This document shows positions 4,881 through 57,555 of a DNA stretch of 64,000 bases, piece by piece. How positions within the stretch are numbered: position 1 is the stretch's first letter; the number at the start of each line of letters is the position of its first letter. The notes beneath the pieces are model-generated. The model saw only the letters and a program-made list of their open reading frames with translations. It made no database searches and was not told the origin of the DNA. Source of the DNA: Candidatus Micrarchaeum sp. (GTDB lineage Archaea > Micrarchaeota > Micrarchaeia > CABMEP01). The stretch is taken from the NCBI GenBank assembly GCA_020723065.1, contig DYJP01000002.1:7464-71463 (forward strand), given 5' to 3'. Position numbers and translations under genes: made by a program.

Positions 4881-4905
4881 GAATTAATTGAAATAGGTGA
4901 AAAAA

Positions 4906-5805
4906 ATGGCAATCAAGGGATCTCCAGATCTTAGCGTAATGTTAACGACAGCATTAGTTTTCGGATCTATTGCGGGACTGCTTTACGGGCTGTTCATGAT
5001 CACGGGAACCGATGTCTCCATAATGGGAATGCTTGCGTTCTCGATCGTTCTTTTAGGGATTCAGTGGTACATCGGACCCACAATCGTTAGATGGACGAGC
5101 GGAGCCAAAGAAATAGCTTTGCAGCAGGCGCCGGAGCTTCACGCAACGGTTGAAAGGATTGCGAAAAAATCCGGAGTCCCGAAGCCCAAGCTCTATCTTG
5201 TAAACAGCCAAATCCCAAATGCGTTCGCATTCGGAAGGGGCAAGAATGATGCGGGCATTGCAGTGCATGCAGGGTTGCTTCAAAAGCTAAATAAAAAAGA
5301 AGTGGAAGCAGTTATAGCCCACGAAATGGGCCACATCAAGCACAACGACGTAATTATCATGACAATAGCGAGCGTAATACCTGTGCTCCTTTATTACATC
5401 ACCATAATGATACTGAGCAAGGACGACGACAGACCGAACCCTGTAACTGCCTGGATTGGTGGGATTGCCGTACAGTTCCTCGGCCAGCTTATGATCCTCT
5501 GGCTTTCAAGGCAAAGGGAATACTACGCAGACGCGCACAGCGCAAGAATAATGGGTGAACCGATGCCGCTTGCAAGCGCATTAACAAAGATAACCTATAA
5601 CATTCCGGCAAACACGGGAAACAGTTCCTTAAACACATTGTATGTAGCGGAACACGGCTTTGTATCTGAAAGCGTTGTCCGCGCGCTCAGCATGAACGAT
5701 TCGAAGGCGCTCCTTTCCGCTGTCGAAAGTGAAAAGGACAGCCCGTTTGAGATAATCGGAACGCATCCAAGCCTGAAGAAGAGGTTAAAAAGTTTGCTTA
5801 GCTAA
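4906..5805 (+). CDS. htpX: M48 zinc metalloprotease HtpX homologue
   Basis: HEMGHIKHND (HExxH) motif, N-terminal TM helices and an HtpX-like layout. Start at ATG 4906. Confidence 0.85.
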   Translation: MAIKGSPDLSVMLTTALVFGSIAGLLYGLFMITGTDVSIMGMLAFSIVLLGIQWYIGPTIVRWTSGAKEIALQQAPELHATVERIAKKSGVPKPKLYLVNSQIPNAFAFGRGKNDAGIAVHAGLLQKLNKKEVEAVIAHEMGHIKHNDVIIMTIASVIPVLLYYITIMILSKDDDRPNPVTAWIGGIAVQFLGQLMILWLSRQREYYADAHSARIMGEPMPLASALTKITYNIPANTGNSSLNTLYVAEHGFVSESVVRALSMNDSKALLSAVESEKDSPFEIIGTHPSLKKRLKSLLS

Positions 5806-6385: not shown

Positions 6386-8341
6386 TCAACAAATACCACA
6401 TACTGTACGTACCGACTTCGCGTTGGAAAGAAGCCCCTCTACAAACGGATTCGGCATGTAATATTCGTTGTAGATCCTGTTGGAGATCTCTCCATTGAAT
6501 CCATTGTCTCCGGAAACTATTCCATACAATGAGAGATAGGCTCTTACAAGCGAATCATTCGGGAACGAATTCTTAGCCTTGTTTTCATAATATCCTAATG
6601 TCTGGGCCACGCAACATATGTTTTTCTGAATTCCTTCATAAGTGTCGCAACTGCAATGAGGATTGGAAAGGAACAGTTCTCTTGCTGGAATTCCTCCTGA
6701 ATCATACTGCCCCTTGTAGGCCAATGCCGCCATCAGAACTGAGGCATCTATCTTATTTTCAGATGCCATATTTTTTATAAAAAGCGAGTTCTGCATGCAA
6801 TAGCCTGCATCGAACGAACCAGGCAGCACGGACTGCATGTCTATACAGAAAAGATTCCCACATTGGGTGGTGCTCACCGTCTTCTGAAGGTTTATCTTGT
6901 TGTAATCCGTTACCTCAAGGTCGAGTATATCATTATTGTATCCATACTGGTTGCACTGTGAAGCGACATTGTCTCCTGCTTCAGAGAACACTGCGAATGA
7001 TGAGTATGTGGAAGTGGGTGAACTGCTCGAATAGTATATTGTGCAGAACAGACCAAGACTGTTCAGCCCTTCCTTGGGCAAGGATGAAATGTCCTTAATT
7101 GATATTCCGATGACACCTGATCTTGAAAGGGCTGAAATTGATTTTATCAATGCTTGATAAAAGTCACCTATAGTTGTATTTGTCCAGGTGCAGGTTTCTT
7201 TCTGGTTGGTTCCCTGCCTTACATCTATGTCCAGAATCATGGTCGGCTTCCCGTATGTTTCAATGACGTGCTGCGCGAATGCTTTTATGGAGCTGTCCTT
7301 TTTCACATTTGAATCGGCATCATACTCCTTACTGTACAATATTATATTTGGCTCGCAACTTTCAAACGAATTTACATCCACCGTAAATCCTACAACATCT
7401 ATGCTATCCATGTCTCCGGAAGCCTTGTAGAAATCGAGTGTTTCAGTATCATTAAACCTAACAACCGCTACAGTCAAGCATTTTGGACACCAGGACTTTA
7501 TGGATGAAAAGGTTCCGCTTGGACTCCTTACGTTTTCAGTATTTAAGGATCTTTTTATAGAGTAACCAAAGCCGGGAGCAATAAACGCCGCACCTTTTTT
7601 GTTAGCTGCTTCGGCAAGCAGACTTGGGTATTCTAGATAATTGTATTTATAAAATGGGATTGTTCCGGAACTAAGGATGCAATCTGAAAGAAATTCCACT
7701 TCAGAAGCATCCACCTTTTGAGATTCCAATTTTAATATGATGAATCCCAAATTTCCTCCACACAACGACTTAAATTCCTCTCCCACGAATACAGAATCTC
7801 CAGTTCCAATCATTACGGTCTGTATGAATGTTCCGGTTGATTTCATAGTGTTCGATCCAGAATTTATTATGGCTTCAAGAGCCGATTTCTGCGTTGATTG
7901 AGTTAGATCAAACTTTTTCAATGAGCAGTTGCCTCCCGCCAAAGACGCCACTCCTATTTTTTTCTCAGATGTGAACATACTAACCAGGGAATCCCAAATC
8001 TTTGTAAATATAGATGCTTCCTTATAGTCACAAATGAGTGCAGTACAGGTATTCACTTCCTTGACCTCTTTCTGCTGATATTCTATAGTTTCTGCGGAAA
8101 GATATGAAGTGAACGTTGCCTTCTTAATGCATCCGAAAAGGAACAGTGTCGAAAACGCCAATAAAAGTAAAAGATAATTACTCTTCATAAGACCACTAAA
8201 TGAAAGAGATTCAATCTGAATCGTCTGGCCCCTCAGACTTGTCTTTTGAATCCTTTTTCTCTTTCTTGTATTCCAAAAGCTTCTTCTCTTCATATTCAAT
8301 TTCCTTCTTCTTTTCATACCATATCTACTTCTTTGGTTCAT
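6386..8341 (-). CDS. Large cysteine-rich exported/anchored protein of unknown function, last gene of the membrane-paralog operon
   Basis: A very basic N-terminus (RRRK/KRKR) is followed by a hydrophobic signal/anchor YLLLLLAFSTLFLFGC. About 590 extracytoplasmic residues carry ~20 Cys (CPKC, CGGNCS, CSCDTY...ICCVAQ). An alternative start at ATG 8188 (MKSNYLL...) is possible. An SD-like GGAG lies upstream of the 8341 start. Confidence 0.5.
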   Translation of the reverse strand: MNQRSRYGMKRRRKLNMKRRSFWNTRKRKRIQKTSLRGQTIQIESLSFSGLMKSNYLLLLLAFSTLFLFGCIKKATFTSYLSAETIEYQQKEVKEVNTCTALICDYKEASIFTKIWDSLVSMFTSEKKIGVASLAGGNCSLKKFDLTQSTQKSALEAIINSGSNTMKSTGTFIQTVMIGTGDSVFVGEEFKSLCGGNLGFIILKLESQKVDASEVEFLSDCILSSGTIPFYKYNYLEYPSLLAEAANKKGAAFIAPGFGYSIKRSLNTENVRSPSGTFSSIKSWCPKCLTVAVVRFNDTETLDFYKASGDMDSIDVVGFTVDVNSFESCEPNIILYSKEYDADSNVKKDSSIKAFAQHVIETYGKPTMILDIDVRQGTNQKETCTWTNTTIGDFYQALIKSISALSRSGVIGISIKDISSLPKEGLNSLGLFCTIYYSSSSPTSTYSSFAVFSEAGDNVASQCNQYGYNNDILDLEVTDYNKINLQKTVSTTQCGNLFCIDMQSVLPGSFDAGYCMQNSLFIKNMASENKIDASVLMAALAYKGQYDSGGIPARELFLSNPHCSCDTYEGIQKNICCVAQTLGYYENKAKNSFPNDSLVRAYLSLYGIVSGDNGFNGEISNRIYNEYYMPNPFVEGLLSNAKSVRTVCGIC

Positions 8342-8348
8342 AGCCTAT

Positions 8349-10859
8349 CTACTCCTTCTTCTCGTAACCGAGCTTGGGGGGGCTATATTTCCTTATGAAC
8401 TCTTTCGCGTAAGTGAGCGCCTTGTCCCGGTATTCCGATTTCGGAGATGCGGAAAGGACTATCTGTTCCCGTTCCATCTTGATGAGAAGATCATTGAGCG
8501 AATATCTCTGCATCAACCGCGTATCAAGAGTGAAGTCTTCCTCGACAGGATCAATGTTTCCTGCGAGCATCTCACTGAACGTCTTGTCGAACACTGTGCG
8601 CCCAATATCCTTGTTTTCAACTAGATCGATCCTTTCCAAGGCGAATTTAACCTCTTCGTCCTTTGCGTAAGGCGACATCAGTCTGTTGAAAAGAAGCTCG
8701 AAAACTTGGTCCTCATCCTTTCTTAATATTGTCGCATCAAACATCTGCCTCGCGGTTGTTTCGTCCAGCACCGGCTTGTCCCCGTAATAGTCCTCGGTCC
8801 GATTGTAAATATCGGCAAGAAAGCTATTTGCCTTGTTTGTTAGAATGTCGAAGGATATGAGCGAATTGAATGCGGATTGCTCCTTTGTTTTCACATCGTA
8901 GGAGCTGTTGTACTTTTCCACGTCGTGAAGGAACTTGTCTACGGAAGCCTCAAGGTTATTTCTTGCAGATATGATGTTGTCCATCCTCTCTTGGAAAATC
9001 TTGCCTTCCTGCTTTTCCAAGCCAACCAGAAGCGAAACGACCGCCTCTCTCTTTTCCTTTGATCCGAGAATCTCCTTTTCGATCTCGGCTTTTAATTTGC
9101 CGTCTTTTTCGGAGACATATTGGTCAAGCATGTTGTTTGAGATTCCCAACTTTTCGCTGACATTAAGCTTGTTTAGCAGTTCCTTGTATTCAGAATTTTT
9201 CACAAGGGAATCTTGTTTGGACACTATCTTAGTAAGAAGCGGGTCCAGCTCGCCCTTTTCAAGCTTCTGCACTCCGTCGTTCTTTACGGCCAGCTTGCGC
9301 TTATCGAATTCATTTAGTGTAAGATCGTTTAAAATGGCCGCAATCGAATCCACCCTCTCTTTCTCGGGAGTAATGGCGTTCATTGCGTTCTTATAATGCT
9401 TACTGTTCTGCGGATCCCCCATGATGTCCAGGACGTTTTTATTTATCATGTTCAGGCTCTTTATCATTTCGGCAATGTATATTCTTTCCAGCTCTATTTT
9501 CGTCTGGACTACTGCATCGATTTTCTTTGCGATTTCCGGATGTTCGGAAAAGTCCTTGGTCACCTTGAGCCCGACCTGCTCACGCAAGTCCTGGAAAAAG
9601 TTCGGATTGAGCGCCCTTCCGGGATCCCTTATGTATTGCACGTATTCACTAAGTATATACGTGTCTACGCTCTTCAGCTCTTCTTTTATAATTTCAGGAT
9701 TAATGCTTTCCAGTTCCGCTTTTTTAGCAAGAGTAAGCGCGGAAAGCGCCTTGAGGTCCTTTTCGTATTCCTGGATCTTCTTGACATACTGCTGCATCAT
9801 TTCATTTATCTTTTTTTCAGCCTGGTTTGCTCTCCAAATCTCCCCCTCCGTCCTTGCCTTTGCCTTTATCTTCTCTAATTTTTCCTTGCGCTTTTGCAGC
9901 GTGTTCACCCTACTCTTAGACGTTGCCAATCCTTTCATCAACTTGCTTCTCACCCCGAATTGGTTCAGTCTTCTTGCAAGCTTGAGCATCCTGTCCTGCT
10001 CTGATCTAGAAGTATAAACTTCCATTAGTTCTGCATATTTGTTTCTAGGCGTGTATTTCTCCAAAGTATTAACGGCCGAGAGCGAATTCAAATCTACATT
10101 TTTCGCTTTATAGAATGCAACGGCAACCGAAGTGAATACTTTTGCCATAGTACCTTTCATCACAGAAGTGCTTGTTTTTAACGAAAGCTTGGTAACGCGA
10201 GGCACCTTAATTCCTTTAACTTTGGGCATAGTTATGTCGAAAGCGGACATTGGCTTCCTTCCGGATGCGTAAAGTGCTGCTGCAAGAACACCTATAAACA
10301 AGAATACTATGAACCAACTTGAATCCACAAGCTCCTTAAACGAAAATACTGAAGATGAAAAGACGGTTTCGAATCTTTGAGTTGGAAAAAAAGTGGAATC
10401 GCCTTCAAAACGGACTTTTATTACTGCCTCATTTGAAGAAACTGTGGCAATGCAGAACCCTTTTCCTTCTGAATTGGTTATCCAGTTGCAAAGCTTAACT
10501 TGGTTAGATTGATCATTTGGATCAACCAAGTATGCAACAACCGATTGCCCCGCAACTGGCGAGAGACCGTAATTGCTAGATATGACTGATGGATCGATTT
10601 GGCCTGTCTGAGCATATTCAGCCAAAGTCTGTTTTGACTCTGGAAGAACGAAGCTAGATAATGTTGCGGATATGTTTAGGCTGGTAGTTGAAATGCTTGC
10701 AACTCTAAACTCTGAAAAATAAGTAGAAGTTTTAGTAGCGGCGAATATCATTTCAGAAAACAGAATGGTAACTAAGAAAATGCTTAGATATGAAAAGAAC
10801 AGTTTACGGATGCAAGGCATTCCAATGCATTTTCTTCTTAAAACCATATCTCTCCCCAT
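8349..10859 (-). CDS. Bitopic membrane protein: N-terminal signal/anchor, ~170-aa extracytoplasmic domain, TM helix, then ~620-aa K/E-rich coiled-coil cytoplasmic domain
   Basis: N-terminal hydrophobic segment FFSYLSIFLVTILFSEMIFA and a second TM WFIVFLFIGVLAAALYA. The long tail has a heptad-like K/E/L pattern with no Walker motifs. Confidence 0.5.
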   Translation of the reverse strand: MGRDMVLRRKCIGMPCIRKLFFSYLSIFLVTILFSEMIFAATKTSTYFSEFRVASISTTSLNISATLSSFVLPESKQTLAEYAQTGQIDPSVISSNYGLSPVAGQSVVAYLVDPNDQSNQVKLCNWITNSEGKGFCIATVSSNEAVIKVRFEGDSTFFPTQRFETVFSSSVFSFKELVDSSWFIVFLFIGVLAAALYASGRKPMSAFDITMPKVKGIKVPRVTKLSLKTSTSVMKGTMAKVFTSVAVAFYKAKNVDLNSLSAVNTLEKYTPRNKYAELMEVYTSRSEQDRMLKLARRLNQFGVRSKLMKGLATSKSRVNTLQKRKEKLEKIKAKARTEGEIWRANQAEKKINEMMQQYVKKIQEYEKDLKALSALTLAKKAELESINPEIIKEELKSVDTYILSEYVQYIRDPGRALNPNFFQDLREQVGLKVTKDFSEHPEIAKKIDAVVQTKIELERIYIAEMIKSLNMINKNVLDIMGDPQNSKHYKNAMNAITPEKERVDSIAAILNDLTLNEFDKRKLAVKNDGVQKLEKGELDPLLTKIVSKQDSLVKNSEYKELLNKLNVSEKLGISNNMLDQYVSEKDGKLKAEIEKEILGSKEKREAVVSLLVGLEKQEGKIFQERMDNIISARNNLEASVDKFLHDVEKYNSSYDVKTKEQSAFNSLISFDILTNKANSFLADIYNRTEDYYGDKPVLDETTARQMFDATILRKDEDQVFELLFNRLMSPYAKDEEVKFALERIDLVENKDIGRTVFDKTFSEMLAGNIDPVEEDFTLDTRLMQRYSLNDLLIKMEREQIVLSASPKSEYRDKALTYAKEFIRKYSPPKLGYEKKE

Positions 10860-10919: not shown

Positions 10920-12113
10920 CTATATGAGTTTTGCTAAACCTTCAGCAAAGTCCTGAGCATCCACATTAAGGAATATGGAAAATGACTTTATGAATGTATA
11001 AGCAAGAACTGCTGCAATAAATGGATAAGCAACTCCGAATATCACCATCTCCCCAATTATTCGCTGCGTATTGGTCATATATGAGATTATGGATGTACTT
11101 TGATATTCTGTTTCACCTATTGAGCTAGTAAATAAGTCCATTGTTTTTGAAAATATTCCAGCAGAAAGTATGTCTGTCAAAATCGGACATGGTACGGCAG
11201 ATAAAAGTGTTGCACTGGTGACACCAGATGTTCCACAAAGGCCGTCAACCCCGCCCGAAGTTGTCCCAAGTACCATCAATATGCTGTATGATATCGGATA
11301 AACGAAATAAAGCCCAATTGAAACGGCAATAAGCAGGTTTCCGACAGAACGAACTACAGGAAAGCCCCTTAAGACCACTCCTACTGGAAGAAACACAGTA
11401 AGCATTGTTGTTTGAATAAAGAGCAGGAGCTGCTTTTGGAAAAAGAACATGTAAATTATGTATGAAATATCTGAAAGCAATCTGTTTATGGCACTTATCG
11501 GAACGCTAAGACCCATTTTAGCAATCTGAGTGACAAAGGAAGACGATGAAAGAACTGAAGATATGCTTCCTAGTGCTGAAGGAACTGAAATGCTCGAAAT
11601 AACCTTATTTGATTCTATTGTATTCAAGACCATCGGAATAGCAACAAGGCAAAATCCATCCTCGTATCGCTTCTGGGCACACACGAGTGTTCGGTTCATA
11701 TAATATTCTGCAACCACAAAGGGAGACTTGTCATTGGCCAAAACAGTTTGAAGTGCGATGCGGTCTTTCGACATTATTCCGACAAATTCTGCAGACTTGC
11801 TTGCAAGGACGTCTACGAACATAATTAGAAATGACAAAAGCACAACTGTAGATATTGCATAAATGAATTCTGATTTCGCAAGCTTCTCCAGGTCACTGGA
11901 TTGAAAAAGCCTTCCAAACATGAATGTAAGAGCCGAAAATGAAAATGAAATAGTCACAGCTATTACGGCAATCAATTCCCAGGGAAAGTCAACCGAATAC
12001 CAAGTCTTTGAAAGTTCCGAAGCAGGTGTTGTTGATGAAGAATAAGTTGACTGTGCTAATGAGATGGAAACGAAAGCCAGGAAAAATACAAACCAATTCG
12101 ATATTCTTCGCAT
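10920..12113 (-). CDS. Paralogous polytopic membrane protein, family member 6 of 6 (397 aa)
   Basis: Signal-like N-terminus. Shared motifs SDLEKLAKSEFIYAISTVVLLSF, LPVGVVLRGFPVVRSVGNLLIAVSIGLYFVYP, and C-terminal tail ...AQDFAEGLAKLI. Confidence 0.6.
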   Translation of the reverse strand: MRRISNWFVFFLAFVSISLAQSTYSSSTTPASELSKTWYSVDFPWELIAVIAVTISFSFSALTFMFGRLFQSSDLEKLAKSEFIYAISTVVLLSFLIMFVDVLASKSAEFVGIMSKDRIALQTVLANDKSPFVVAEYYMNRTLVCAQKRYEDGFCLVAIPMVLNTIESNKVISSISVPSALGSISSVLSSSSFVTQIAKMGLSVPISAINRLLSDISYIIYMFFFQKQLLLFIQTTMLTVFLPVGVVLRGFPVVRSVGNLLIAVSIGLYFVYPISYSILMVLGTTSGGVDGLCGTSGVTSATLLSAVPCPILTDILSAGIFSKTMDLFTSSIGETEYQSTSIISYMTNTQRIIGEMVIFGVAYPFIAAVLAYTFIKSFSIFLNVDAQDFAEGLAKLI

Positions 12114-12140
12114 ACGACCACTAAAAATTACAATACATAA

Positions 12141-13772
12141 CTATATTATCTTCCATATGGAGGCAATATCCATTTCAGAACCAAGCGCGCTAGACAGGCC
12201 TCTTATTCCCTTAGATATTACCGTAAGATTAAGTATTGGAAGCAGAATTCCGGCAATGAACGAGACTACAACCAGATCGAAAAGTTTTCTTATTGATTCG
12301 GATATTGTCGAATCAGAACTGGCGCTTCCTACTATTGTTTGTGAATATGAAGATGTTAGCAAAGTTGTTTGTGTATCCAAAACTTGAAACTGTGCAGACG
12401 GTGACGTTTCGGAAATAGCATAGCTTGCTGCGAGAAGATAGTTTACATCAGATTCAGTCAGAATTGTCTTTGTACAAACTTCATTTGGAGCAGCACCAGT
12501 ACAAGCCCTAGAGGCACACTCTCTCCAATCACCGCACTTTTCCCCATTTGATTTCTTAGGTATGCAAACCTTTCCACCTTCGATCTCATTTGAAACTGTT
12601 CTGTCCCCCACATAAATTGTACTGTAGACATGACTTGTCGAATTGCAAATGCCAGATATGCATTCCGAATCTTTAGTGCACTCTACCCCGTTTGCCTTCC
12701 CTATCTCACATTTTCCAGTGATTGGATTTTTCACAAAACCCTCACAGCATCGTATTGCAACCGAACCTTCTCCACCACAGGAACTACAGTTCTTCCCGGA
12801 AGAAGTCTGCTCACAGTATCCAGACTGGCATTGATCATCTGTCTCGCACGGCTGACCAACATCTTTCAATGGAGAACAAAGCTTAAGATTTTTAGATTGA
12901 TCGAATTCACACATATGCGAATAGCAGTCAAAATTGTTTGTGCATGAAAGTTTCTCAAATATTTCATCTGAATTAACATATTTGTCTACCATTGCCTGAT
13001 TCAAAAGCAAAACGAAAGGAATTAAGATATAAAGACTAATGCCTGCGCCAAGAAGTGCACCGCCAAATTTACGGAAAGGCAAGATGGATCTAAGAACCAA
13101 CCCTATAGGGACCAAAAAGAACAATGTTAAATACGGGACTATCTTTATTATATGAAGCTGAACCACGGTCAACAAGTATGCAGACAAGGCTATCCCATAA
13201 AGAACAAACGTTGAATCGGAAACATATTTTATCGGGTCTGATAATATCTCGAATGTTTTAGATGGTGTTGCATAGCCTTCAACAGATACAGTGGAAAGAA
13301 GCTGCAAGCTTGCTCCTATCGCACCTATTGCGATAGTTGTTTTGCCTAAATATCCAGAAAGTCTAGAAAGATATGATTCGGCAGCAATGAATGTAGGACC
13401 TTCCTTGCCGAAAAGATCGCTCACAACATCGCTACACATAAAGCCGACTATCGCAGTAATTGACACCAGGATAAGTGCGGTGAATACTAGCTGATAAAAC
13501 TCATTTTTAGACTTAGAAATGAAAGAATTGTCGATCGTAGAACCGTACATGTACATAAATCCGACCAGTAAAATTCCAATAATAAGCCCGATGAAGGCGG
13601 TTGCCCTCCAATCATTTATTGAAAGCATGAACTCGCATCCTGCTGTTTGCGCGCTTTCTGCCGTTACTGCGGCTTGAACAAAATAAGAAATGAAAAAGAA
13701 TATGAATAGTGATCTGAATAGAACTGAATCCTGGAAAGTTCCTAAATTCAAATTAAATTTTTTGGAGTCCAT
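12141..13772 (-). CDS. Paralogous polytopic membrane protein, member 5 (543 aa), with a disulfide-rich extracytoplasmic insert
   Basis: Shared motifs KNEFYQLVFTALILVSI and VPIGLVLRSILPFRKFGGALLGAGISLYILIPF. A ~110-aa insert carries repeated C-x(3-4)-D-x-C-x-S-G-x-C modules (CETDDQCQSGYC, CTKDSECISGIC, CTNNFDCYSHMC). Confidence 0.6.
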   Translation of the reverse strand: MDSKKFNLNLGTFQDSVLFRSLFIFFFISYFVQAAVTAESAQTAGCEFMLSINDWRATAFIGLIIGILLVGFMYMYGSTIDNSFISKSKNEFYQLVFTALILVSITAIVGFMCSDVVSDLFGKEGPTFIAAESYLSRLSGYLGKTTIAIGAIGASLQLLSTVSVEGYATPSKTFEILSDPIKYVSDSTFVLYGIALSAYLLTVVQLHIIKIVPYLTLFFLVPIGLVLRSILPFRKFGGALLGAGISLYILIPFVLLLNQAMVDKYVNSDEIFEKLSCTNNFDCYSHMCEFDQSKNLKLCSPLKDVGQPCETDDQCQSGYCEQTSSGKNCSSCGGEGSVAIRCCEGFVKNPITGKCEIGKANGVECTKDSECISGICNSTSHVYSTIYVGDRTVSNEIEGGKVCIPKKSNGEKCGDWRECASRACTGAAPNEVCTKTILTESDVNYLLAASYAISETSPSAQFQVLDTQTTLLTSSYSQTIVGSASSDSTISESIRKLFDLVVVSFIAGILLPILNLTVISKGIRGLSSALGSEMDIASIWKII

Positions 13773-13780
13773 TAAATCAC

Positions 13781-14917
13781 TTATAATTTTTTGATTACTT
13801 CTGAGAAATCCACATCGGATCCGAAGAAGTACCCAAGCTCCTTTGCAACTATAATCGTTATAGTAAAGTCAATTATAGGTATTATCGTAAACAATAAAAA
13901 TGCGAATGACGCTTCGTTGAATAAGACAAGCGGGTTCAAATATTCATTTAGCAACGATGGAAGTTTAGATACAGTATTTATGGAAAAAGCCAATGAAGCA
14001 AATATTGAATTCGTATCATCCTTAAATGAAGTTTCAAGATTCGTCATGAACTTGCCCATTTCTGTATTCTGGGTTCTTGCATCCAGAATATCACTCCATC
14101 CCCCTGGCTTATTCAGAAGTGTATCTACTATTGTTTGATTAATTACAAATGTAAGTGGATAAACTATGTAGAACGAAATTGCAACAACAATCAGAAAATT
14201 ACCAACATTTCTTAAAAAAGAAAAGGTTCTTAATAATAAACCAACTGGCAGAATCAGAGTAAATGCAAGCTTATCTATAAAGTCTAAAAAGTATATCTGC
14301 ATTGTAGTAAGTCCAAGAACTGAAGCAGAAGAGGTTAATATGAAATTGACCATGTTAATTATACTTTCAAAAATAGAGCTTATTGCCCTATCTATGTCAA
14401 ATAAAGGTACTTCCGCAATTTTCGTAAGATAACTGTTGCCAACCACTAATGCAACTTTGAACATATTGGCTGAAGTGACGATTGAAAGCACATATTTTTG
14501 AACGGAAGAAAGATAGATCTTAGCGTTTTCTATCGCTCCGTTTGGATGCTCCACTGTGGCTGTAAATCCGTAAGCCTCAAAAACCATATTCTCTATCTTT
14601 ATCGCTGAAAAGAATAGGAAAACCACTAGCGACATCATGATTACCTGATATAGCTCATTGTTTGCCCAACCGCCCAATTCCCTGACTCCAAAAACCTTGG
14701 AAACCATAAATGCAAGAGAGATAACACCGAGATTTAAGAAGAGCGCTGCAAGAACTATTATTTCCCACGGCAGCGCTCTTAAATTGTAAACTACGACCGA
14801 ATCTTCCTGAGCGAATGTCGCTGGAATTAAAGCAATAATAATCATAAGAACAAAAATGAACGGATGGACACTATATGATTTGAAAGAAGCCGTTCCTGTT
14901 TTTTTAATTTCATTCAT
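13781..14917 (-). CDS. Paralogous polytopic membrane protein, member 4
   Basis: Shared motifs NNELYQVIMMSLVVFLFF and LPVGLLLRTFSFLRNVGNFLIVVAISFYIVYP; tail FGSDVDFSEVIKKL. The start is trimmed to MNEIKK (ATG 14915-14917), which removes the 47-nt overlap with the upstream gene; the track start is 14980. Confidence 0.55.
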   Translation of the reverse strand: MNEIKKTGTASFKSYSVHPFIFVLMIIIALIPATFAQEDSVVVYNLRALPWEIIVLAALFLNLGVISLAFMVSKVFGVRELGGWANNELYQVIMMSLVVFLFFSAIKIENMVFEAYGFTATVEHPNGAIENAKIYLSSVQKYVLSIVTSANMFKVALVVGNSYLTKIAEVPLFDIDRAISSIFESIINMVNFILTSSASVLGLTTMQIYFLDFIDKLAFTLILPVGLLLRTFSFLRNVGNFLIVVAISFYIVYPLTFVINQTIVDTLLNKPGGWSDILDARTQNTEMGKFMTNLETSFKDDTNSIFASLAFSINTVSKLPSLLNEYLNPLVLFNEASFAFLLFTIIPIIDFTITIIVAKELGYFFGSDVDFSEVIKKL

Positions 14918-14933
14918 GTGATCACGATAAGTG

Positions 14934-16148
14934 TTATATAAGTTTAGAGAATCCAGCAAGATCCACGTCTCCTCCAACAAGCTGGGAGAATTCCTTAATG
15001 AATGAGACTAGTCCATAGATAGAAATTATGAATGGAACAAGGATCCATACTGAAAGCACCGAGAGATTATCAAGAAAACCACCGGGCATTATTGTTCTAA
15101 ATATAGTGTATGATATTCGGTCAACTGTATTTCCTTCGGATGTTTCAACCCAAAGATATTTCGTAGTTAAATCCTTTGAGAATTTCACAACTCCTGTTGC
15201 CCAGTCTTTATTTGATTCATCGATATTTTCAGAAACTACTACAATTCCGCCAGTTCCTGCTGCGGAACTTTCAGAAGGAACGTTTGAAATTTGGGACGTT
15301 TCAGCGGTTATAAACTGGGAATTGTCTGAAAATGCAGATACAAACGCATTTGGATCAGGTGAAAACAAAGTCGTCGAAAATACTATAAGCATCGGATATA
15401 TGAAATAAGTTCCGACTGCTATTGAGAAAAGAAGACCGCCCACCCCTCTGAATAATGATATTGACCTCAAAGCAAGACCCGCAATTATTAATGCTGGAAA
15501 GAGCGACTTCATTACAAAAAATAAAAACATTGAATTGGCCTTCAGAAGTATAAGAAGGTTGAAGCCGATTTGAATAAAGTTTGAATAGATTTGGCTTATA
15601 TTGGAGAGAACCGCCAAGGGGGTCGCTTTAAACGCACCATAACCCATAGATACTCCGGCAAGGAGATCGACCCAACCTGCAGAAACCACTTTGTTTGCAA
15701 GATAATACCGCACCACATCATAAGTGTGCTCTAGCTGCGTTATTGCAATCACCATATGGCAAGGAAGTTCGTCTCCTCCGCAGCTCACCTGTACCATTTT
15801 AACTGCAGCATTGAGATTCTCTGGACTTTCAGTAATTATTCCGTACTTTTGGAATTCTATCTTATTGAATGTGCAGTAATCTGTGCTGCAAGAAAGGCTG
15901 AGCGCTGGATTTATCGCAGAAATTACGCCATACATCAGATTGTTCGCTATAGCGACCATGAGCACAGCAGAACTCAGAAGAAATGCTGAAGCAAAAATCT
16001 GGTATATCTCATTCTGGGCCCATTTCTTTAAATTGTCATTGTCGAGGGCCCTTGCGATCATGTAGAATAATGAAATGAAGGCTAAGGAAATCACCAAAAT
16101 TAAAGAGGTGACGGGAGCCCAAGCCTGAAATATCATTTCATATACCAT
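14934..16148 (-). CDS. Paralogous polytopic membrane protein, member 3 (404 aa)
   Basis: Shared motifs LKKWAQNEIYQIFASAFLLSS and IIAGLALRSISLFRGVGGLLFSIAVGTYFIYP; tail VGGDVDLAGFSKLI. Confidence 0.6.
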   Translation of the reverse strand: MVYEMIFQAWAPVTSLILVISLAFISLFYMIARALDNDNLKKWAQNEIYQIFASAFLLSSAVLMVAIANNLMYGVISAINPALSLSCSTDYCTFNKIEFQKYGIITESPENLNAAVKMVQVSCGGDELPCHMVIAITQLEHTYDVVRYYLANKVVSAGWVDLLAGVSMGYGAFKATPLAVLSNISQIYSNFIQIGFNLLILLKANSMFLFFVMKSLFPALIIAGLALRSISLFRGVGGLLFSIAVGTYFIYPMLIVFSTTLFSPDPNAFVSAFSDNSQFITAETSQISNVPSESSAAGTGGIVVVSENIDESNKDWATGVVKFSKDLTTKYLWVETSEGNTVDRISYTIFRTIMPGGFLDNLSVLSVWILVPFIISIYGLVSFIKEFSQLVGGDVDLAGFSKLI

Positions 16149-16163
16149 ATAATCACTTTAAGC

Positions 16164-17054
16164 TTAATCTATGCTATCCAAGAAATTTGTAAATGTCTCT
16201 ACAAATGAAACAGTAATTGTAAAATTGATCAAAGCGAGAAATGTCGCTTGCGGAATCAGAATCGCCATCTGGTCAAAGTAGCCTAAAACATCTATAATTT
16301 GTGAAGATAACTTAAATGTTTCTAAAGGTTCAATAGTTGTCTTTGCAAGACCGTTGAAATTCGGATCAATTGTGTTGTATATTGCATAGTCCATAACGTA
16401 GGTCATTGGAAATACAATATAAAGACCAAAGGCTAATGCCATTAGGAATGAGCCTCCTTTGCGCATCATTGGAATCGTTCGCAATACCATTCCGAGTGGA
16501 AGCAATAATGTCATCGCAAACGCCTCCGAAAACTGAATAAGTATCAATTGAGCATGAAGACTTCCTACTATCACATTGAACAAGGATCCAAAAAGACCTA
16601 TTATCTTAGAAAAAGGAGTGAGCACTTTTCCTGGAGAGAATTTAACTGAACTCTTAGCCGCTGGAAGACCGGTTTTAATCTCTAAAGATGAAATCATGTC
16701 GATAATGAAACCACTGACCCAGAGATTTTGAATTGTCGGAAGCCCTTTCTTATAGATAAGGGTCGTAAGATATTGGCTGCTTGCGGTGAACTGGTTTCCT
16801 TCCCCTATAGTGCTCTGCACCAGATTCTGTGCTGCCCCGCAAGAGGCAGTGGCAAGCCCAACTATTACAACTGCAACTATCAATGCAACGAAAAGCTGAC
16901 TTAGTTCTTTCTTTGCCATCGCCTCGAATTCGCTCTTAATAAGAAGCCTACCGAGCATAAACAGCAAGGAAACAAATGCAAGCGTGGTAATTGAAGCTAA
17001 ACCTATGAAAGTCCAAACATCAATTACAGGCATGCATGCGTCAAGAACAACCAT
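16164..17054 (-). CDS. Paralogous polytopic membrane protein, member 2 (296 aa, minimal core without a large insert)
   Basis: Shared motifs EFEAMAKKELSQLFVALIV and LLPLGMVLRTIPMMRKGGSFLMALAFGLYIVFP. Confidence 0.6.
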   Translation of the reverse strand: MVVLDACMPVIDVWTFIGLASITTLAFVSLLFMLGRLLIKSEFEAMAKKELSQLFVALIVAVVIVGLATASCGAAQNLVQSTIGEGNQFTASSQYLTTLIYKKGLPTIQNLWVSGFIIDMISSLEIKTGLPAAKSSVKFSPGKVLTPFSKIIGLFGSLFNVIVGSLHAQLILIQFSEAFAMTLLLPLGMVLRTIPMMRKGGSFLMALAFGLYIVFPMTYVMDYAIYNTIDPNFNGLAKTTIEPLETFKLSSQIIDVLGYFDQMAILIPQATFLALINFTITVSFVETFTNFLDSID

Positions 17055-17066
17055 ATAAACACCAAA

Positions 17067-18755
17067 TCATATCAGTCTTCCCATTTCTATTATTTTTGTT
17101 TCGCCACCAAGTGTCTGTGATATTGACTTAAATGAACCTACAAATATCGCTATGGTAAGTGCAAATGTAAAAAATATCATCAATGGCGGAAACATTATCT
17201 TGTCTATATTATCTGTAAGATACAGAAACAAATAACCCGAGGAAACGGGACTCAGTGCGACACCAATTAATGATGCATCTGAAGCAGTTGAAAGCAGGCC
17301 CTTCATAAATGTATTGGTGCCGCTGAAAAATCCTTTTATTCCGGATGCAGTAAGCCTCAAATAGCTTATATCATTCAACTCATTTTCCTTTGTTGATGCT
17401 GACAATTTGCAATAAAAACTAGACCAAAGCCCTTCTTTGCAGGGATCTCCAAAATAAAAGCTGTAATTGTCGATATACTGCAAGTTCTTCTCTTCCGACT
17501 TAACAGCTAAAACGATCGTATTTTCATCGTCTGCCTTGAATGATGCAGAATTTAATGCTTGAGTTATATTCTGACCTACAGTAACTGCACCTCTTCCAGT
17601 AAGCTTGAAACAGTTTGTCACATCAAATTTAGATGTATATGGTATTCCATCTTGATCATAAGTGGTAATAGTTTCTTCTCTAATTGTCTTCCAGTAAACA
17701 TAATCCTTTGGAGGCAAATTAGCGTAAATTGAAGATTCAAAAGAAGATGAAATATCAGAAACATAAATTTTGTAATTCAATATATCGTTACACTGAACCT
17801 GTGACCAAATAGAATAATTGAGCGGTACAAGCGCCTTCCATTCGAATTTGTCGCTTTCATTGAGATAATACTTTCCTGGAGCTGGCGAAGTCTTGAGATA
17901 CAGTCCAGCGCCAGTGGGATCGAAGTTTGGCAATTCGCCTAAGATGCCACTACCTGGTTCCATCTCTGTATACAATATATTTTTCATCTCAATGTACATT
18001 GCGTTTGAAACTATAAGCGAAATAGGATAGATTATGTAAGCTGCCAAGGCAATTGCAATTAAGGTGGAACCTGTTTTCCTACTCAATGGGAAGGCACGAA
18101 GCAATACACCCAAAGGCAATACGATTGGAAGCATTGTCTTTTGAATTATATTAAGCAATTCGTGCTGAACAAACATTGCAAAAAACATAGGTTGCATAAA
18201 GGATTCAAAAGATGAAAGCGGGCCTAAAAGCATTCCAAAGGGGCTTCCATATTTTAAGCCAAAATTACTTACAATTGCTGCAAAACTTCCCAACAACCCA
18301 GGAAGATTTACACTTGCAGCAGAAAGTAATGCAGTAAGCCAGCCTATTTTAAATTCGAAAGTTGAAATGAAAGTTATAATCGTTTTAAGAGAAATGACGT
18401 GAGTATATGCCTCTATAAGATCAGCTTGTGCAGTGTCAAGAAATGCGGCAGCAGATTCATAAGGAGTTTGACCGACATATGCAGTAGTTAGTGCAGTAAT
18501 AATTATTATCAATGAATATGCAATTCCAATCAAGGCTCCAGTAAATATGAATTCACTGAGCTCCTTTTTCGCCCAGCCTTTCAACTCATTAGACTGGAAT
18601 GCAGTGGAAAACATCCATGCAAGAGAACTCATTATGGCAGAAAGAATAAGGGACAACACGCAGGTTGCGAACCAGTTTCCATTTTGAAAAACAGAATCGA
18701 TTGAGGACTGGACTACTGTTGTAAACGTGCTCATTTCTGTCGCCATTAATATCAC
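17067..18755 (-). CDS. Paralogous polytopic membrane protein, member 1 (562 aa), first gene of the block
   Basis: Shared motifs NELKGWAKKELSEFIFTGALIGI and VLPLGVLLRAFPLSRKTGSTLIAIALAAYIIYP. A ~250-aa extracytoplasmic insert is present. Tail LGGETKIIEMGRLI. Confidence 0.6.
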   Translation of the reverse strand: MILMATEMSTFTTVVQSSIDSVFQNGNWFATCVLSLILSAIMSSLAWMFSTAFQSNELKGWAKKELSEFIFTGALIGIAYSLIIIITALTTAYVGQTPYESAAAFLDTAQADLIEAYTHVISLKTIITFISTFEFKIGWLTALLSAASVNLPGLLGSFAAIVSNFGLKYGSPFGMLLGPLSSFESFMQPMFFAMFVQHELLNIIQKTMLPIVLPLGVLLRAFPLSRKTGSTLIAIALAAYIIYPISLIVSNAMYIEMKNILYTEMEPGSGILGELPNFDPTGAGLYLKTSPAPGKYYLNESDKFEWKALVPLNYSIWSQVQCNDILNYKIYVSDISSSFESSIYANLPPKDYVYWKTIREETITTYDQDGIPYTSKFDVTNCFKLTGRGAVTVGQNITQALNSASFKADDENTIVLAVKSEEKNLQYIDNYSFYFGDPCKEGLWSSFYCKLSASTKENELNDISYLRLTASGIKGFFSGTNTFMKGLLSTASDASLIGVALSPVSSGYLFLYLTDNIDKIMFPPLMIFFTFALTIAIFVGSFKSISQTLGGETKIIEMGRLI

Positions 18756-18796
18756 TGCCCTTAAGTACTAGATATATAGTTGAATAGCCTTAAATT

Positions 18797-18818
18797 TATT
18801 TCTATGTATATAGAAATA
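18797..18818. promoter_or_regulatory. Inverted repeat TATTTCTA-n6-TAGAAATA with a TATA-like spacer, in the divergent leuS / membrane-array intergenic region
   Basis: Perfect 8-bp arms (18797-18804 and 18811-18818) with spacer TGTATA. It lies 59 nt upstream of the leuS ATG and ~40 nt upstream of the 562-aa gene start on the other strand. Confidence 0.3.
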
Positions 18819-18876
18819 TACTGTGCAAAGTAGAATACTATTCCAGTCTAAACTCAACATATAAACTAGTGATTAT

Positions 18877-21438
18877 ATGAATCCAATTGAAGCCAAATGG
18901 CAGAAAGAATGGGAAAACAGCAATCTTTTCAGCTCTTCAGTTTCAGAAAAACCAAAATTCTATCTTGTTTTCGCATATCCTACTGTTTCTGGAACACTCC
19001 ATATCGGGCATGCAAGAAGCTATTCAATACCAGACATAATCGCCAGATATAAGCGAACCAAGGGGTTCAATGTCTTTTTCCCGCTCGGATTCCATGCAAC
19101 TGGAGTGGATTGTGCAAAAATCTATGAAGAATGCAAAGTCGATCCTTCAAAAGGAACCAAAAAATACGGATTAGAGGAGAATGCAGCCAAATCGTTCAAA
19201 TCTCCACTTGATGTCGACAAATATCTTGAGAAAAGGATAATCTCTGCGCTGAAAAGGATGGGGCTCAGCATAGATTCCAGCACCGCAGTATCTACGATAG
19301 AACCGCATTACAACAAATTCATTCAATGGCAGTACAAGCGTCTCAATGATCTTGGCTATCTCAAGCAGGGAGACTATGTCCTTCCCTACTGTAACGAATG
19401 CCAACAGGTGATAAGCATTGATGCTGCGCAGGCGGAAATAGCGGAAGGAGCAGAAGCTGAAGTAAAGGAATATGAAGTGCTCAAATTCAAAGATGAGAAC
19501 GAAACTATTTATCCGATTGCAACACTGAGGCCTGAGACAGTCTTCGGAGTCACTAACCTTTGGGTGAATCCTAAATCAGACTACGTTGAGGCTTCAGTTG
19601 ACAGTGAAACCTGGGTGGTAAGCCAGCATGCAGTGGAGAAGCTCAGAAACCTTGGCAAAAATGTAGAAGTCAAAAAGAAACTTAAGGGGATAGAGCTAAA
19701 AGACAAAGAAGTTTCGAATCCTGCGAACGGAAGCAAGGTCAAGATAATACCTGCGACATTCGTAGACTCATCTGAAGCTACTGGAGTGGTCATGAGCGTG
19801 CCCGCGCACGATCCCTATGATTACAGACATTATAAGGAAGCAACAAACGCTGACGACAGCATGATACCATTTGTGGTTGATATGCGAATGAACGGAATTC
19901 CAAGCGCAATAATCCTCCAAAAAAACAAGGGAGATGCAGAAGCCGCAGTAAAGGAACTCTATAAAATGGAATACCGTGGAACAATAAAGAAAGACATCCC
20001 TGTTATAGGCGGACTTCCGACTGCAAAAGCGAAAGACGCGATAATCGCCTATCTTTCTCAAAAAGGACTTACGGATAAAATTTACGAGTTCACAGTGAAG
20101 GAAGTGAAAGATAGGTTCGGACATCCTGTTATAATCAAAAGCATAGGCGGACAATGGTTCGTGAATTATGCGGACCAAAAATGGAAAGGTCTGGCTAAGG
20201 AATGCGTGGAACAGATGAACACTTATCCCCCAGAGTACAAGAAAGAGCTTCCAGGAATAATCGATTGGCTGAGAGGAAGACCACTCATCAGAAAGAGGGG
20301 ATTGGGAACTGAATTCCCGTTCGCAAAAGGGTGGATAATCGAGGCCCTGTCTGATTCCACAATCTATATGGCGTTTTATGTTATTTCCAAGGCGGTAAAC
20401 ACAGGAAAGCTTAAGGTCGATGAAATTGACGACGCATTCTTCGACTATATTTATCACGGAAAGGAGGGAAGCCTCAAGTGCAGCAGGGAAGTCGCAGATC
20501 AGATCAAGAAGGAATTCGAGTACTTCTATCCCCTTGACCTTAATTTCGGAGGAAAGGAACACAAGACAGTGCATTTCCCGTTCTTTATATTCCACCATGC
20601 TGCGCTATTCGACAAAAAGTTCTGGCCGAAAGGGGTGTTCGTCAACTGGCACCTAATAGTTGAAGGAGAAAAGATGTCCAAGAGCAAGGGCAATGTAGTT
20701 TTCTGGGACGATGCGATAGAAAAGTACGGAGCAGACGCGATCAGATTCTACGAAGCACACGGCACCAGCCAATGGAACGACTTCGATTGGAAGAATGCAG
20801 AAATGGAAAGGTACGCGATTCATCTTGAAAGTATAAAGAAAATGCTAGACGAAATGATCTCTGAAAAAGAAAACAATCTCGAAATCAACAAATGGGGAGA
20901 AGCGATGTTTGCAAAGAGACTAAAGGCGTTAGAAACTGAATTCGAGAAATACGAAATAAGAAACGCAGCCTCACTTGCATTCTTTGAGATAAGAAACGAC
21001 CTACAATGGCTCAGGAGCCGAGGTGGAACGCCGAGCAAGAAGCTGCTATCAGACTGGCTAAAAATACTCAGTCCGTTCATACCCCATGTCGCAGAGGAAT
21101 ACTGGCATAAGCTTGGAAATAAAACGTTCATATCGACCGAAAGCTGGCCGGAAGCCAGAGAAATAAACGAAAATATACTGAAAGCGGAAGAAGAAGTAAG
21201 GACCCTAGTGGATGACCTCAACAACCTAATGAGAATTGTAAAAGAGAAAAAGACCAAACTTTACGTATACTCGATGCCCAATGAGACACAATATCTCAAA
21301 GATGCCTCTGAATTCATAAAGCAGAGATTCAAATTCGATGAAGTGAACGTTTCTTCCGTAGCCGACAAGGAAAAATACGATCCGATGAAAAAGGCAAGCA
21401 AGGCGAAGCCTGGCAAACCCGCTATATACCTCGAATAA
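18877..21438 (+). CDS. leuS: Leucyl-tRNA synthetase
   Basis: Class I aaRS motifs HIGHARSY and KMSKS; 853-aa archaeal/eukaryal-type LeuRS layout. Confidence 0.95.
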   Translation: MNPIEAKWQKEWENSNLFSSSVSEKPKFYLVFAYPTVSGTLHIGHARSYSIPDIIARYKRTKGFNVFFPLGFHATGVDCAKIYEECKVDPSKGTKKYGLEENAAKSFKSPLDVDKYLEKRIISALKRMGLSIDSSTAVSTIEPHYNKFIQWQYKRLNDLGYLKQGDYVLPYCNECQQVISIDAAQAEIAEGAEAEVKEYEVLKFKDENETIYPIATLRPETVFGVTNLWVNPKSDYVEASVDSETWVVSQHAVEKLRNLGKNVEVKKKLKGIELKDKEVSNPANGSKVKIIPATFVDSSEATGVVMSVPAHDPYDYRHYKEATNADDSMIPFVVDMRMNGIPSAIILQKNKGDAEAAVKELYKMEYRGTIKKDIPVIGGLPTAKAKDAIIAYLSQKGLTDKIYEFTVKEVKDRFGHPVIIKSIGGQWFVNYADQKWKGLAKECVEQMNTYPPEYKKELPGIIDWLRGRPLIRKRGLGTEFPFAKGWIIEALSDSTIYMAFYVISKAVNTGKLKVDEIDDAFFDYIYHGKEGSLKCSREVADQIKKEFEYFYPLDLNFGGKEHKTVHFPFFIFHHAALFDKKFWPKGVFVNWHLIVEGEKMSKSKGNVVFWDDAIEKYGADAIRFYEAHGTSQWNDFDWKNAEMERYAIHLESIKKMLDEMISEKENNLEINKWGEAMFAKRLKALETEFEKYEIRNAASLAFFEIRNDLQWLRSRGGTPSKKLLSDWLKILSPFIPHVAEEYWHKLGNKTFISTESWPEAREINENILKAEEEVRTLVDDLNNLMRIVKEKKTKLYVYSMPNETQYLKDASEFIKQRFKFDEVNVSSVADKEKYDPMKKASKAKPGKPAIYLE

Positions 21439-23503: not shown

Positions 23504-24655
23504 ATGCCTATAACCATTCTTTTGGAAAAGAACAAACTCAAGGTAAGAAACCAACAGGATTACGAAGCGCTAAGAAGGGCTTTCTACGGAGAGAAGCGCG
23601 GACCCGAAATAGAGCTCACTGTAGAGGAAGCCCTCTATCTGATGGAAGTTCGAAATGCTATTTGCCTAGATGGAGAGCGATCCGTCACATTCAGTGAACT
23701 GGTGCAAAAATTCAACAAACCGAAACTGTTCGCAGAATACATCACATTCAGGGACTGGAGAGAAAGGGGACTCATGGTAAGACCTTTCTCAGACTCGAAA
23801 GGAAACTACAACAAGAATCCGACAGTCAAGTATCCGTTCAAGAAAACAAAATTCAATAAGGTGAATGCCAGCGGATTGTTCTTCAAAGAAGATAAGATGA
23901 CGATCCTGGAAGATGAAGAGACAGGAAAAATCCTGTATCAAAGTCATTGGTTCGGCCAGTACGGATCCTACAAGGCGGAAGGAAGGGGAAGGTTCCTAAA
24001 ACTTGACAAGTTCGAGACGATGTTCCTTGTGAAAAACTGTGGAATGGAGCTCATGAACTGCACGGAAGCAGAGCTCGACGCCAACCTGAATGAGGATCCT
24101 GATTTTCTGTCGATGTATCAAGTTTATGAAGATTGGAGAAATGCTGGATTCATAGTAAAAACAGGATTCAAATTCGGAACGCACTTCAGAATATATTTCC
24201 CAGGCGCATTGCCTGGAAAGAGCAAGGATTGGACCCATTCAAAGCACGTCCTCCACATATTCCCAAGGGAGAAGAGAATGGTAATAGCTGAATGGGCGAG
24301 AGCGATCAGGGTGGCTCACGGAGTCAGGAAGACGTTCATACTCGCCATACCTGGAAAGAAAAAAAAGGAAAAGAATAAATCCATAGTCAGTTTCATATTA
24401 TACCATAGGAAAGGAAACGCCATAGAGACCCCGGACAAAGACGGACCTTCTTTCGCCATGGTTTCATTGAGCGAAGAGGAAATGATCGGAGGAAACGAGC
24501 TTGCAATAGCGATCGAAGAATCCAAGAACCACGGGCTAGATGTTGTCCTGGGTATAGTTGATAGAGAGACTTCTGTCACTTATTACAGGGTAAAAAGAAT
24601 CGACTTGCCGGAAAGCAAGTACGAATATTACGAAATAGAATGGATACAGCCATGA
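23504..24655 (+). CDS. endA: tRNA-splicing endonuclease EndA, three-unit architecture
   Basis: Central catalytic motif GFKFGTHFRIYFPG...WTHSKHVLHI (Tyr/His/Lys triad region). It is preceded by an N-terminal EndA-like domain and followed by a ~130-aa extra C-terminal unit. Confidence 0.75.
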   Translation: MPITILLEKNKLKVRNQQDYEALRRAFYGEKRGPEIELTVEEALYLMEVRNAICLDGERSVTFSELVQKFNKPKLFAEYITFRDWRERGLMVRPFSDSKGNYNKNPTVKYPFKKTKFNKVNASGLFFKEDKMTILEDEETGKILYQSHWFGQYGSYKAEGRGRFLKLDKFETMFLVKNCGMELMNCTEAELDANLNEDPDFLSMYQVYEDWRNAGFIVKTGFKFGTHFRIYFPGALPGKSKDWTHSKHVLHIFPREKRMVIAEWARAIRVAHGVRKTFILAIPGKKKKEKNKSIVSFILYHRKGNAIETPDKDGPSFAMVSLSEEEMIGGNELAIAIEESKNHGLDVVLGIVDRETSVTYYRVKRIDLPESKYEYYEIEWIQP

Positions 24656-33819: not shown

Positions 33820-33925
33820 GCAGGGGTGCCAGAGCCAGGTCAAACGGGTCAGATTCAGTATTGAAGACCAAGCTTAGGACCTGATGCGCGTAGGCGCTGC
33901 GTGGGTTCAAATCCCACCTCCTGCA
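33820..33925 (+). tRNA. tRNA-Leu (anticodon TAG), class II with long variable arm and a candidate 19-nt intron at non-canonical position 30/31
   Basis: Acceptor stem GCAGGGG/CUCCUGC with discriminator A. T-arm GUGGG-UUCAAAU-CCCAC. Variable-arm hairpin GCGC-GUAG-GCGC. Removing 33853-33871 restores a perfect anticodon arm UCAGG-CUUAGGA-CCUGA. The D-arm pairing could not be resolved by eye. Confidence 0.55.
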
Positions 33926-37688: not shown

Positions 37689-37702
37689 AATTTACCACGA
37701 CC

Positions 37703-57233: not shown

Positions 57234-57239
57234 AATGAG

Positions 57240-57467: not shown

Positions 57468-57555
57468 CTTAACTTAATTTCTTTTTTATTTTTTCTTTAT
57501 TTTTCTCATTTTTGATTTTTATATATTTAATTAATATTGGTCTGTATCTAATTAG

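Follow-up and report, generated by a model that had tools for sequence, protein, structure and literature searches.

Why does an archaeal genome encode six related membrane proteins side by side, and why do five of them end in nearly the same short peptide? The question is raised by a 64,000-nucleotide (nt) stretch of a Candidatus Micrarchaeum genome (assembly GCA_020723065.1, contig DYJP01000002.1, positions 7,464 to 71,463), called here the window. The window is archaeal by its large subunit rRNA gene (61267-64000) and its intron-containing tRNAs, and has a GC content of ~40%. Within it, eight minus-strand open reading frames (ORFs) follow one another head to tail between 18755 and 6386, spaced 7-60 nt apart, and form an operon whose first six genes, in transcription order, encode paralogs A to F and whose last two encode proteins of 836 and 651 amino acids (aa). 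An initial annotation described a similar C-terminal tail on five of the six paralogs and the ending FLDSID on the 296-aa member. All six ORFs and their C-termini are as quoted there. Our main point reaches beyond the tail itself: the six paralogs are a fixed-order set found throughout the phylum, and in it B is tail-less everywhere. The members of the array are as follows.

17067-18755, minus strand: paralog A, first gene of the array, 562 aa; C-terminus GGETKIIEMGRLI, encoded at 17070-17108.
16164-17054, minus strand: paralog B, 296 aa, without the tail; C-terminus FLDSID.
14934-16148, minus strand: paralog C, 404 aa; C-terminus GGDVDLAGFSKLI, encoded at 14937-14975.
13781-14980, minus strand: paralog D, 399 aa as the longest ORF; C-terminus GSDVDFSEVIKKL, encoded at 13784-13822.
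12141-13772, minus strand: paralog E, 543 aa; C-terminus SEMDIASIWKII; tail GSEMDIASIWKII, encoded at 12144-12182.
10920-12113, minus strand: paralog F, 397 aa; C-terminus AQDFAEGLAKLI; tail VDAQDFAEGLAKLI, encoded at 10923-10964.

These are true paralogs, with 19-27% identity to F and an invariant core, G..LR.....R..G..L.......Y...P, common to all six. At the very C-terminus of five of them, starting ~10 residues past the last hydrophobic helix, stands the pattern L-G-G-[DE]-h-[DE]-h-x-G-h-x-[KR]-h-h (h, hydrophobic). The tail is kept in homologs from other genomes, so its loss there, which the initial annotation had named as grounds for refutation, is clearly not what is seen. Anchored at the C-terminus, 160 such members give the consensus L-G-G-[DE]-[VI]-[ED]-I-[AP]-G-L-[TS]-[RK]-[LI]-[ILV]-COOH, and 141 of them end in [KRHQ]-hydrophobic-hydrophobic. 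A loose form of the pattern matches 335 of 478 family ORFs, for which the ceiling is about five-sixths since B has no tail. The 1246 ORFs of ≥150 aa in these loci that lie outside the family give no match at all. As a measure of conservation, 14-column windows were ranked by entropy in per-orthogroup alignments from 71 complete loci, and the rank of the C-terminal window was read off. In C and E, no window of the protein has lower entropy than the tail (1 of 324 and 1 of 305). The corresponding ranks are 6 of 301 for F, 14 of 348 for A and 27 of 314 for D; the C-terminal window of B, which holds no motif, ranks 75 of 264. The tail is missing from the B position in every complete locus examined, yet B retains the invariant arginine loop (LRTIPMMRKGG). 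The tail thus goes beyond residual similarity among paralogs and is a hallmark of the family.

The array that carries the tail is itself strictly ordered. ORFs were called in 85 locus sequences and searched with a hidden Markov model of the family. Exactly six members, all on one strand, are present in 71 of the 85; where there are fewer, the contig is in most cases short or truncated at an end. Read from the C-termini, the order A to F is constant in the listed loci and is the same in the window. Each position has its own signature: GGE.EI.GL.K.V for A (orthogroup consensus IGGEaEIfGLTKlV), no tail for B, LGGD[IV]EIAGLTRLI for C (LGGDiEIAGLTRLI), LG.D[VI]N...[LF].K[IL][IL] for D, LGEEVD[VI].NLTRMI for E (lGEEVDIsnLTRMI) and FGA[DN][LI].E[IV]GRGL[VI]KLI for F (also quoted as GANIPEIGRGLVKLI). 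Two independent look-ups, at 43% and ~30% identity to the window proteins, returned the same layout. Natural in-frame read-through pairs also occur, but in few loci (12-24 per pair).

Three metagenome-assembled genomes carry two divergent arrays on separate contigs: CAZWEI01 (loci L024 and L039), JACRGF01 (L008 and L045) and JAPLWU01 (L023 and L075). Two of these pairs are complete, whereas contig ends interrupt the third; identity between corresponding members is 23-38%. Such genomes may reflect duplication of the whole module, or they may be mixed bins. The duplicate arrays retain all six members in order, and therefore the six behave as one obligate module. We infer, on strong comparative evidence, that they work together at fixed stoichiometry. 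In the second of the two array types in these genomes, the A tail ends G[LI]xEF[IV], an acidic residue replacing K/R near the end, and B ends ..KDY..E.

How far does the family extend, and is it known? An exhaustive search of the family profile against 1.84 billion cluster representatives returned 2864 proteins at E ≤ 1e-3 and 1938 at E ≤ 1e-10, with lengths of 282-1635 aa among the 150 matches listed. The profile took in the tail columns, which add few bits to scores of 120-420 bits. This search is the informative one; word-index searches are insensitive for this family and gave 13, 16 and 3 matches. All organism-named members belong to Micrarchaeota (a phylum that NCBI names Microcaldota), to Micrarchaeia or to Ca. 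Gugararchaeum. A motif scan of GTDB species genomes found the C-subunit motif GGD[VIT]EIAG[LI] in at least 131 of them; the scan was built on a subfamily alignment, the broad family alignment being without a conserved stretch of 7-10 columns. The best 80 of these 131 relatives are mostly labeled Micrarchaeota or Micrarchaeia and include the complete genome of Ca. Fermentimicrarchaeum limneticum. Some of the 80 are labeled only "archaeon" and two "ainarchaeum"; one ainarchaeum locus (L054) shares its neighbors with loci labeled Micrarchaeota.

For the eight operon proteins and 102 diverse family members, no Pfam or NCBIfam model reached its curated cut-off, the best scores being 10-15 bits against cut-offs of 22-465. 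Weak T4SS_pilin matches in two members (E 0.005) were judged to be noise from hydrophobic hairpins. The family profile had zero matches among PDB sequences at E ≤ 10, structure searches of PDB and BFVD gave no match to the family, and a literature search found no description of it. To judge from the curated libraries and the searched literature, neither the family nor its fixed six-gene array nor the tail seems to have been described before. No relative turned up among the curated families, solved structures and viral predicted structures that were searched.

The arrangement of the chain in the membrane bears directly on what the tail can do. By hydropathy, every paralog has five core transmembrane (TM) helices, with ~14-24 residues past TM5 in all six. 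The TM1-TM2 loop spans ~18 aa and the TM2-TM3 loop 75-125 aa; the TM3-TM4 loop is short, with two or three K/R and zero acidic residues, and the TM4-TM5 loop is long and variable. Across 426 family proteins from complete loci, K/R make up 11.7%, 20.4% and 10.4% of the TM1-TM2 loop, the TM3-TM4 loop and the tail, compared with 4.8-5.7% of the three segments assigned to the outside. Cysteine shows the reverse bias (outside 1.0-1.9% vs. inside 0-0.7%). From the positive-inside rule and this distribution of cysteine, the N-terminus is predicted to lie outside and the C-terminus inside. The tail is therefore predicted to be cytoplasmic, as the initial annotation had proposed, and it lies on the same predicted membrane face as the invariant arginine loop. 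This uncharacterized Micrarchaeota family is defined by its five core TM helices, by the invariant G..LR.....R..G.......P between and within TM3 and TM4, by the A to F order and by a tail on all members except B.

The external parts are far more variable. Paralog F opens with a signal-peptide-like N-terminal segment. Between TM4 and TM5 of paralog E lies a 243-aa insert (residues ~258-500) whose 20 cysteines fall in repeated C-x-C-rich modules, and inserts in other members bring the total protein length up to 1635 aa. It seems that the external loops provide a platform on which variable ectodomains are built. AlphaFold2 (AF2) models of C (mean predicted local distance difference test, pLDDT, 82; predicted TM-score, pTM, 0.80) and F (pLDDT 83.7; pTM 0.79) both have helices of 42-57 residues that prolong the membrane helices well beyond the bilayer; the variable insert comes out disordered, and the C model has a small beta-containing head as well. 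On the inside, the modeled TM5 helix runs on into the cytoplasm, breaks at a Gly-Gly or N-V-D-A hinge and is followed by a short terminal helix. In C, a helix spans residues 358-391, coil 392-397 and a second helix 398-403 (pLDDT 67-75). In F, the helix spans 335-381, the break 382-385 and the terminal helix 386-396 (pLDDT ~81). The terminal helix of F, QDFAEGLAKLI, is amphipathic: F3, L7, L10 and I11 line one face, and D2, E5 and K9 the opposite one. Confidence in the tail is 67-83, compared with 93-97 in the membrane core.

What, then, might the tail be for? Our preferred reading, to which we give somewhat less than an even chance, is that it acts as a cytoplasmic latch between subunits of a Micrarchaeota-specific, five-TM family forming an A to F hetero-oligomer. 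In this proposal the six ancient paralogs would assemble, one of each, into a hetero-oligomeric and probably ring-like envelope complex. Past TM5, the chain would run about two turns into the cytoplasm and then break at the Gly-Gly hinge. The short acidic/hydrophobic amphipathic element that follows, ending exactly at [KR]-hydrophobic-hydrophobic-COOH, would fold back on the inner face of the complex, where its hydrophobic side could pack into a groove of the neighboring paralog and its acidic residues or terminal carboxylate could pair with the TM3-TM4 loop (G..LR.....R..G) through its two invariant arginines. Since B donates no tail, the assembly would be asymmetric, with one acceptor site left free. 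A latch of this kind predicts that five subunits donate a tail and all six can accept one, with B as the single asymmetric position.

Several observations lead us to this reading. First, 71 of the 85 loci have exactly six members and keep them in one order, and besides these paralogs no set of six distinct, jointly inherited surfaces is available. Second, the tail signatures are specific to each paralog yet conserved across the phylum, as pseudo-equivalent contacts between distinct neighbors would give. Third, B always retains the arginine loop and never a tail, and elsewhere the tail and the loop are predicted to share a membrane face. Fourth, the tail is the most constrained segment of C and E, and the AF2 confidence of the tail, lower than that of the core, fits a binding site outside the same chain. 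Finally, most lineages have no conserved gene for a cytoplasmic partner alongside the array, its neighbors there being housekeeping genes for leucyl-tRNA synthetase (LeuRS), aspartyl-tRNA synthetase (AspRS), SurE, a PIN-domain protein, an RNA ligase and CarS (CDP-archaeol synthase).

Other considerations weigh against an inter-subunit latch. Hetero-oligomer formation, docking in trans and arginine pairing are all steps that we infer, the first of them from gene order and copy number only. The invariant arginines could simply be topogenic under the positive-inside rule. The motif core that five paralogs share would be explained just as well by a single reader protein encoded elsewhere in the genome. 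In addition, the pLDDT of ~81 in the modeled tail of F could reflect packing in cis.

A docking or recognition role for the tail is plausible, and the main rival to a latch takes this up by placing the receptor on a separate cytoplasmic protein. Five tails per complex would recruit a partner, which might be the K/E-rich domain or the juxtamembrane motif of the 836-aa protein family, or else an unlinked ATPase or scaffold. We regard this as a real possibility, if a rather doubtful one. The tail's exact C-terminal end, in the same 141 of 160 members, is typical of motifs read via a free terminus, and the core shared by five paralogs would suit a single receptor. Paralog-specific signatures would not be expected of one. 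The nearest candidate is the next gene of the operon.

8349-10859, minus strand: seventh operon gene, 836 aa; candidate accessory or partner protein.

NCBI annotates this protein with 832 aa, starting four codons downstream. It consists of a signal or TM segment, an ectodomain of ~150 aa with two invariant cysteines, a TM helix, the juxtamembrane motif YASGRKPMSAFDITMPKV and 636 aa rich in K and E, which are predicted to share the compartment of the tails. Pfam finds no domain in it or in its family. The initial annotation had named it, as a coiled-coil protein, the obvious partner of the tails. Part of that proposal stands: its large C-terminal part is predicted to be cytoplasmic and so could physically reach the tails, and a stretch of ~270 residues at its N-terminus has homologs in proteins of 587-2341 aa encoded directly beside the array in 16 of the 85 loci. 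The members of this family (in the window and at L005, L007, L009, L012, L015, L021, L029, L034, L036, L039, L040, L053, L063 and L066) have in common the ectodomain with its two invariant cysteines, one TM helix and the juxtamembrane consensus MYYxGKNPLSLFDITTPRLP, so that the motif suspected of reading the tail is within the conserved part. In the window and at L001, L053 and L063 the gene is co-directional with the array and immediately downstream of it; at twelve other loci it is divergent and immediately upstream. Adjacency in two different arrangements suggests that this family and the array are functionally linked. The coiled coil fared less well. Heptad periodicity is at background, with 8% of 28-residue windows above the 95th percentile of shuffles, and only residues ~320-390 look like a coiled coil. 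The cytoplasmic region of the family also varies in sequence as well as in length. The family was not found within 10 kb of the array in 69 of the 85 loci, whereas the tail is universal.

It is useful to compare such docking with known C-terminal motifs. The closest analogy of mechanism is HbYX, the hydrophobic-Tyr-X docking tail of the proteasomal AAA ATPases (Rpt1-6 and the archaeal PAN), which likewise come as six paralogs and dock these tails into the 20S ring. In both cases a short motif with a hydrophobic end stands at the exact C-terminus of some subunits and is absent from others, and HbYX docks onto the surface of a partner as the tails here might. There is no sequence relation: the array paralogs end in [KR]-[LIM]-[ILV], with L, I or M rather than Tyr at -1, and they are polytopic membrane proteins. 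PDZ-binding motifs of classes I-III have S/T, a hydrophobic or an acidic residue at -2 and a hydrophobic C-terminal residue. A motif of this type was ruled out, -2 being R, K or H in 145 of the 160 members.

A less likely alternative keeps the tail at the membrane, as an interfacial amphipathic helix on the inner leaflet that would serve as a lipid-facing anchor or as a topogenic element for TM5. That helix, lying within ~45 residues of the C-terminus, must insert after translation has ended. The 11-residue amphipathic helix past the break in the F model is of the right kind, TM5 ends 14-24 residues short of the C-terminus in all six paralogs, and K/R flank it on the inside. However, B inserts its TM5 without a tail, and a generic surface helix needs neither a Gly-Gly-acidic hinge nor paralog-specific signatures nor an exact C-terminal end. 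Furthermore, the conserved residues are acidic, which is unfavorable at an anionic lipid surface. We therefore consider this explanation quite improbable. Least likely is that the tail is a processing, sorting or quality-control signal, either a C-terminal degron on unassembled subunits or a cleaved sorting signal: several proteases do read hydrophobic C-termini and an M48/HtpX peptidase gene lies nearby (4897-5805 in the window; also in L001), but this neighborhood is confined to close relatives, no sortase-like gene occurs in the neighborhoods, the order of the motif is the reverse of PGF-CTERM-type signals, and its paralog-specific conservation exceeds what a degron needs.

The likeness to PGF-CTERM and PEP-CTERM signals is that a short conserved motif near the last membrane helix marks the C-termini of several envelope proteins of one genome. 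Here, however, TM5 is followed by ~10 residues and then by the G-G-acidic motif, with no terminal basic cluster; the motif is on the predicted cytoplasmic side, and the proteins are multi-pass. No archaeosortase or sortase gene was found among the neighbors in the window (by Pfam) or in the neighbor clusters of the 85 loci, a search that left whole genomes outside. With a membrane helix preceding the motif and an end that is hydrophobic rather than basic, the tail is not an archaeosortase/exosortase signal, in agreement with the initial annotation.

The array as a whole invites a broader proposal, which we think unlikely in its full form. It may be a phylum-specific pseudo-hexameric ring with stalk-like external helices and variable ectodomains, used for building the envelope or for exchange with a host, in which the tails would be latches that set subunit order and gate or recruit the giant cytoplasmic partner. 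Micrarchaeota are genome-reduced, host-dependent DPANN archaea whose envelope organization and exchange with hosts are little understood. Six ordered paralogs kept in at least 71 of 85 loci within very small genomes are likely to be important to their biology. Should the complex turn out to be a channel or to serve as a base for attachment, it would represent a cell-surface machine of a kind new to archaea. The tail taken alone is a modest finding and the phylum-wide six-paralog module the more notable one. Nevertheless, it is the tail that makes the module experimentally approachable, offering a 13-residue, paralog-specific peptide at a free C-terminus for truncation, for tagging or as bait.

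Two known types of membrane protein resemble the paralogs in outline. VirB6/TrbL proteins are polytopic subunits of type IV secretion systems, and in Rickettsiales they form tandem paralog arrays. Like them, the array proteins are predicted to be N-out, five-TM and C-in with a large external loop, and are tandem paralogs with large variable inserts. We rejected identity with this family on sequence, structure and gene context. PF04610 (VirB6/TrbL) had no match at E ≤ 1 in the six paralogs or the 102 diverse members, no structural similarity to solved VirB6-type subunits was found, and VirB4, VirD4 and other type IV secretion genes were absent from every neighborhood examined. The sole secretion-type ATPase in the window belongs to a T2SSE/T2SSF pair 17 kb away among unrelated genes (36003-39091, minus strand), in which a T2SSF-type platform protein (561 aa) stands beside a T2SSE-type ATPase (462 aa) as a type IV pilus or archaellum-like assembly pair. 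The Tweety homologs (TTYH) share five membrane helices, an N-out/C-in topology and an extracellular helical bundle built from extensions of the membrane helices. They are eukaryotic proteins without a comparable tail. TTYH entries were the top full-length Foldseek rows, at TM-scores of 0.11-0.15 and E ≥ 0.2, and we discarded the relation since this is no real structural match.

The remaining features of the operon are local. Two further elements belong to it.

6386-8341, minus strand: eighth operon gene, 651 aa; kept only in close relatives.
18756-18876, no strand assigned: divergent intergenic region between paralog A and leuS, AT-rich, 121 nt.

The N-terminus of the 651-aa protein is very basic, with 17 K/R in 50 aa. 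The protein also has a hydrophobic segment whose last residues, LFGC, may be a lipobox-like site, and a large cysteine-containing ectodomain; homologs were found in only three other loci. The intergenic region is likely to be the promoter region of the eight-gene operon. Within the array, the longest ORF of paralog D begins at a TTG and overlaps paralog C by 47 nt. The true start of D is probably the ATG at 14917 (Met22, MNEIKK...), 16 nt past the stop of C, because the overlap then disappears.

Housekeeping genes flank the operon, with leuS divergent from position 18877 and genes for an ACT-domain protein, the HtpX-type peptidase and Hsp20 downstream; SRP54, a tRNA-splicing endonuclease and others lie further out in the window. 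The leuS gene (18877-21438, plus strand) adjoins the array in 18 loci, being divergent and directly upstream of A in 14, and in another clade an aspartyl-tRNA synthetase gene takes the same position in 20 loci. These synthetase neighbors probably reflect conserved synteny rather than functional linkage.

Elsewhere in the window, Rfam matches tRNAs of 106 and 111 nt at 33820-33925 and 59611-59721, both on the plus strand, that are absent from the ARAGORN output. Both probably contain introns, in keeping with the presence of a tRNA-splicing endonuclease gene at 23504-24655. Finally, the segment 52001-60000, directly before the rRNA gene, has a GC content of 27-33%, with its minimum at 56001-58000, compared with ~40% elsewhere. 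It may be an island or an AT-rich intergenic or RNA region.

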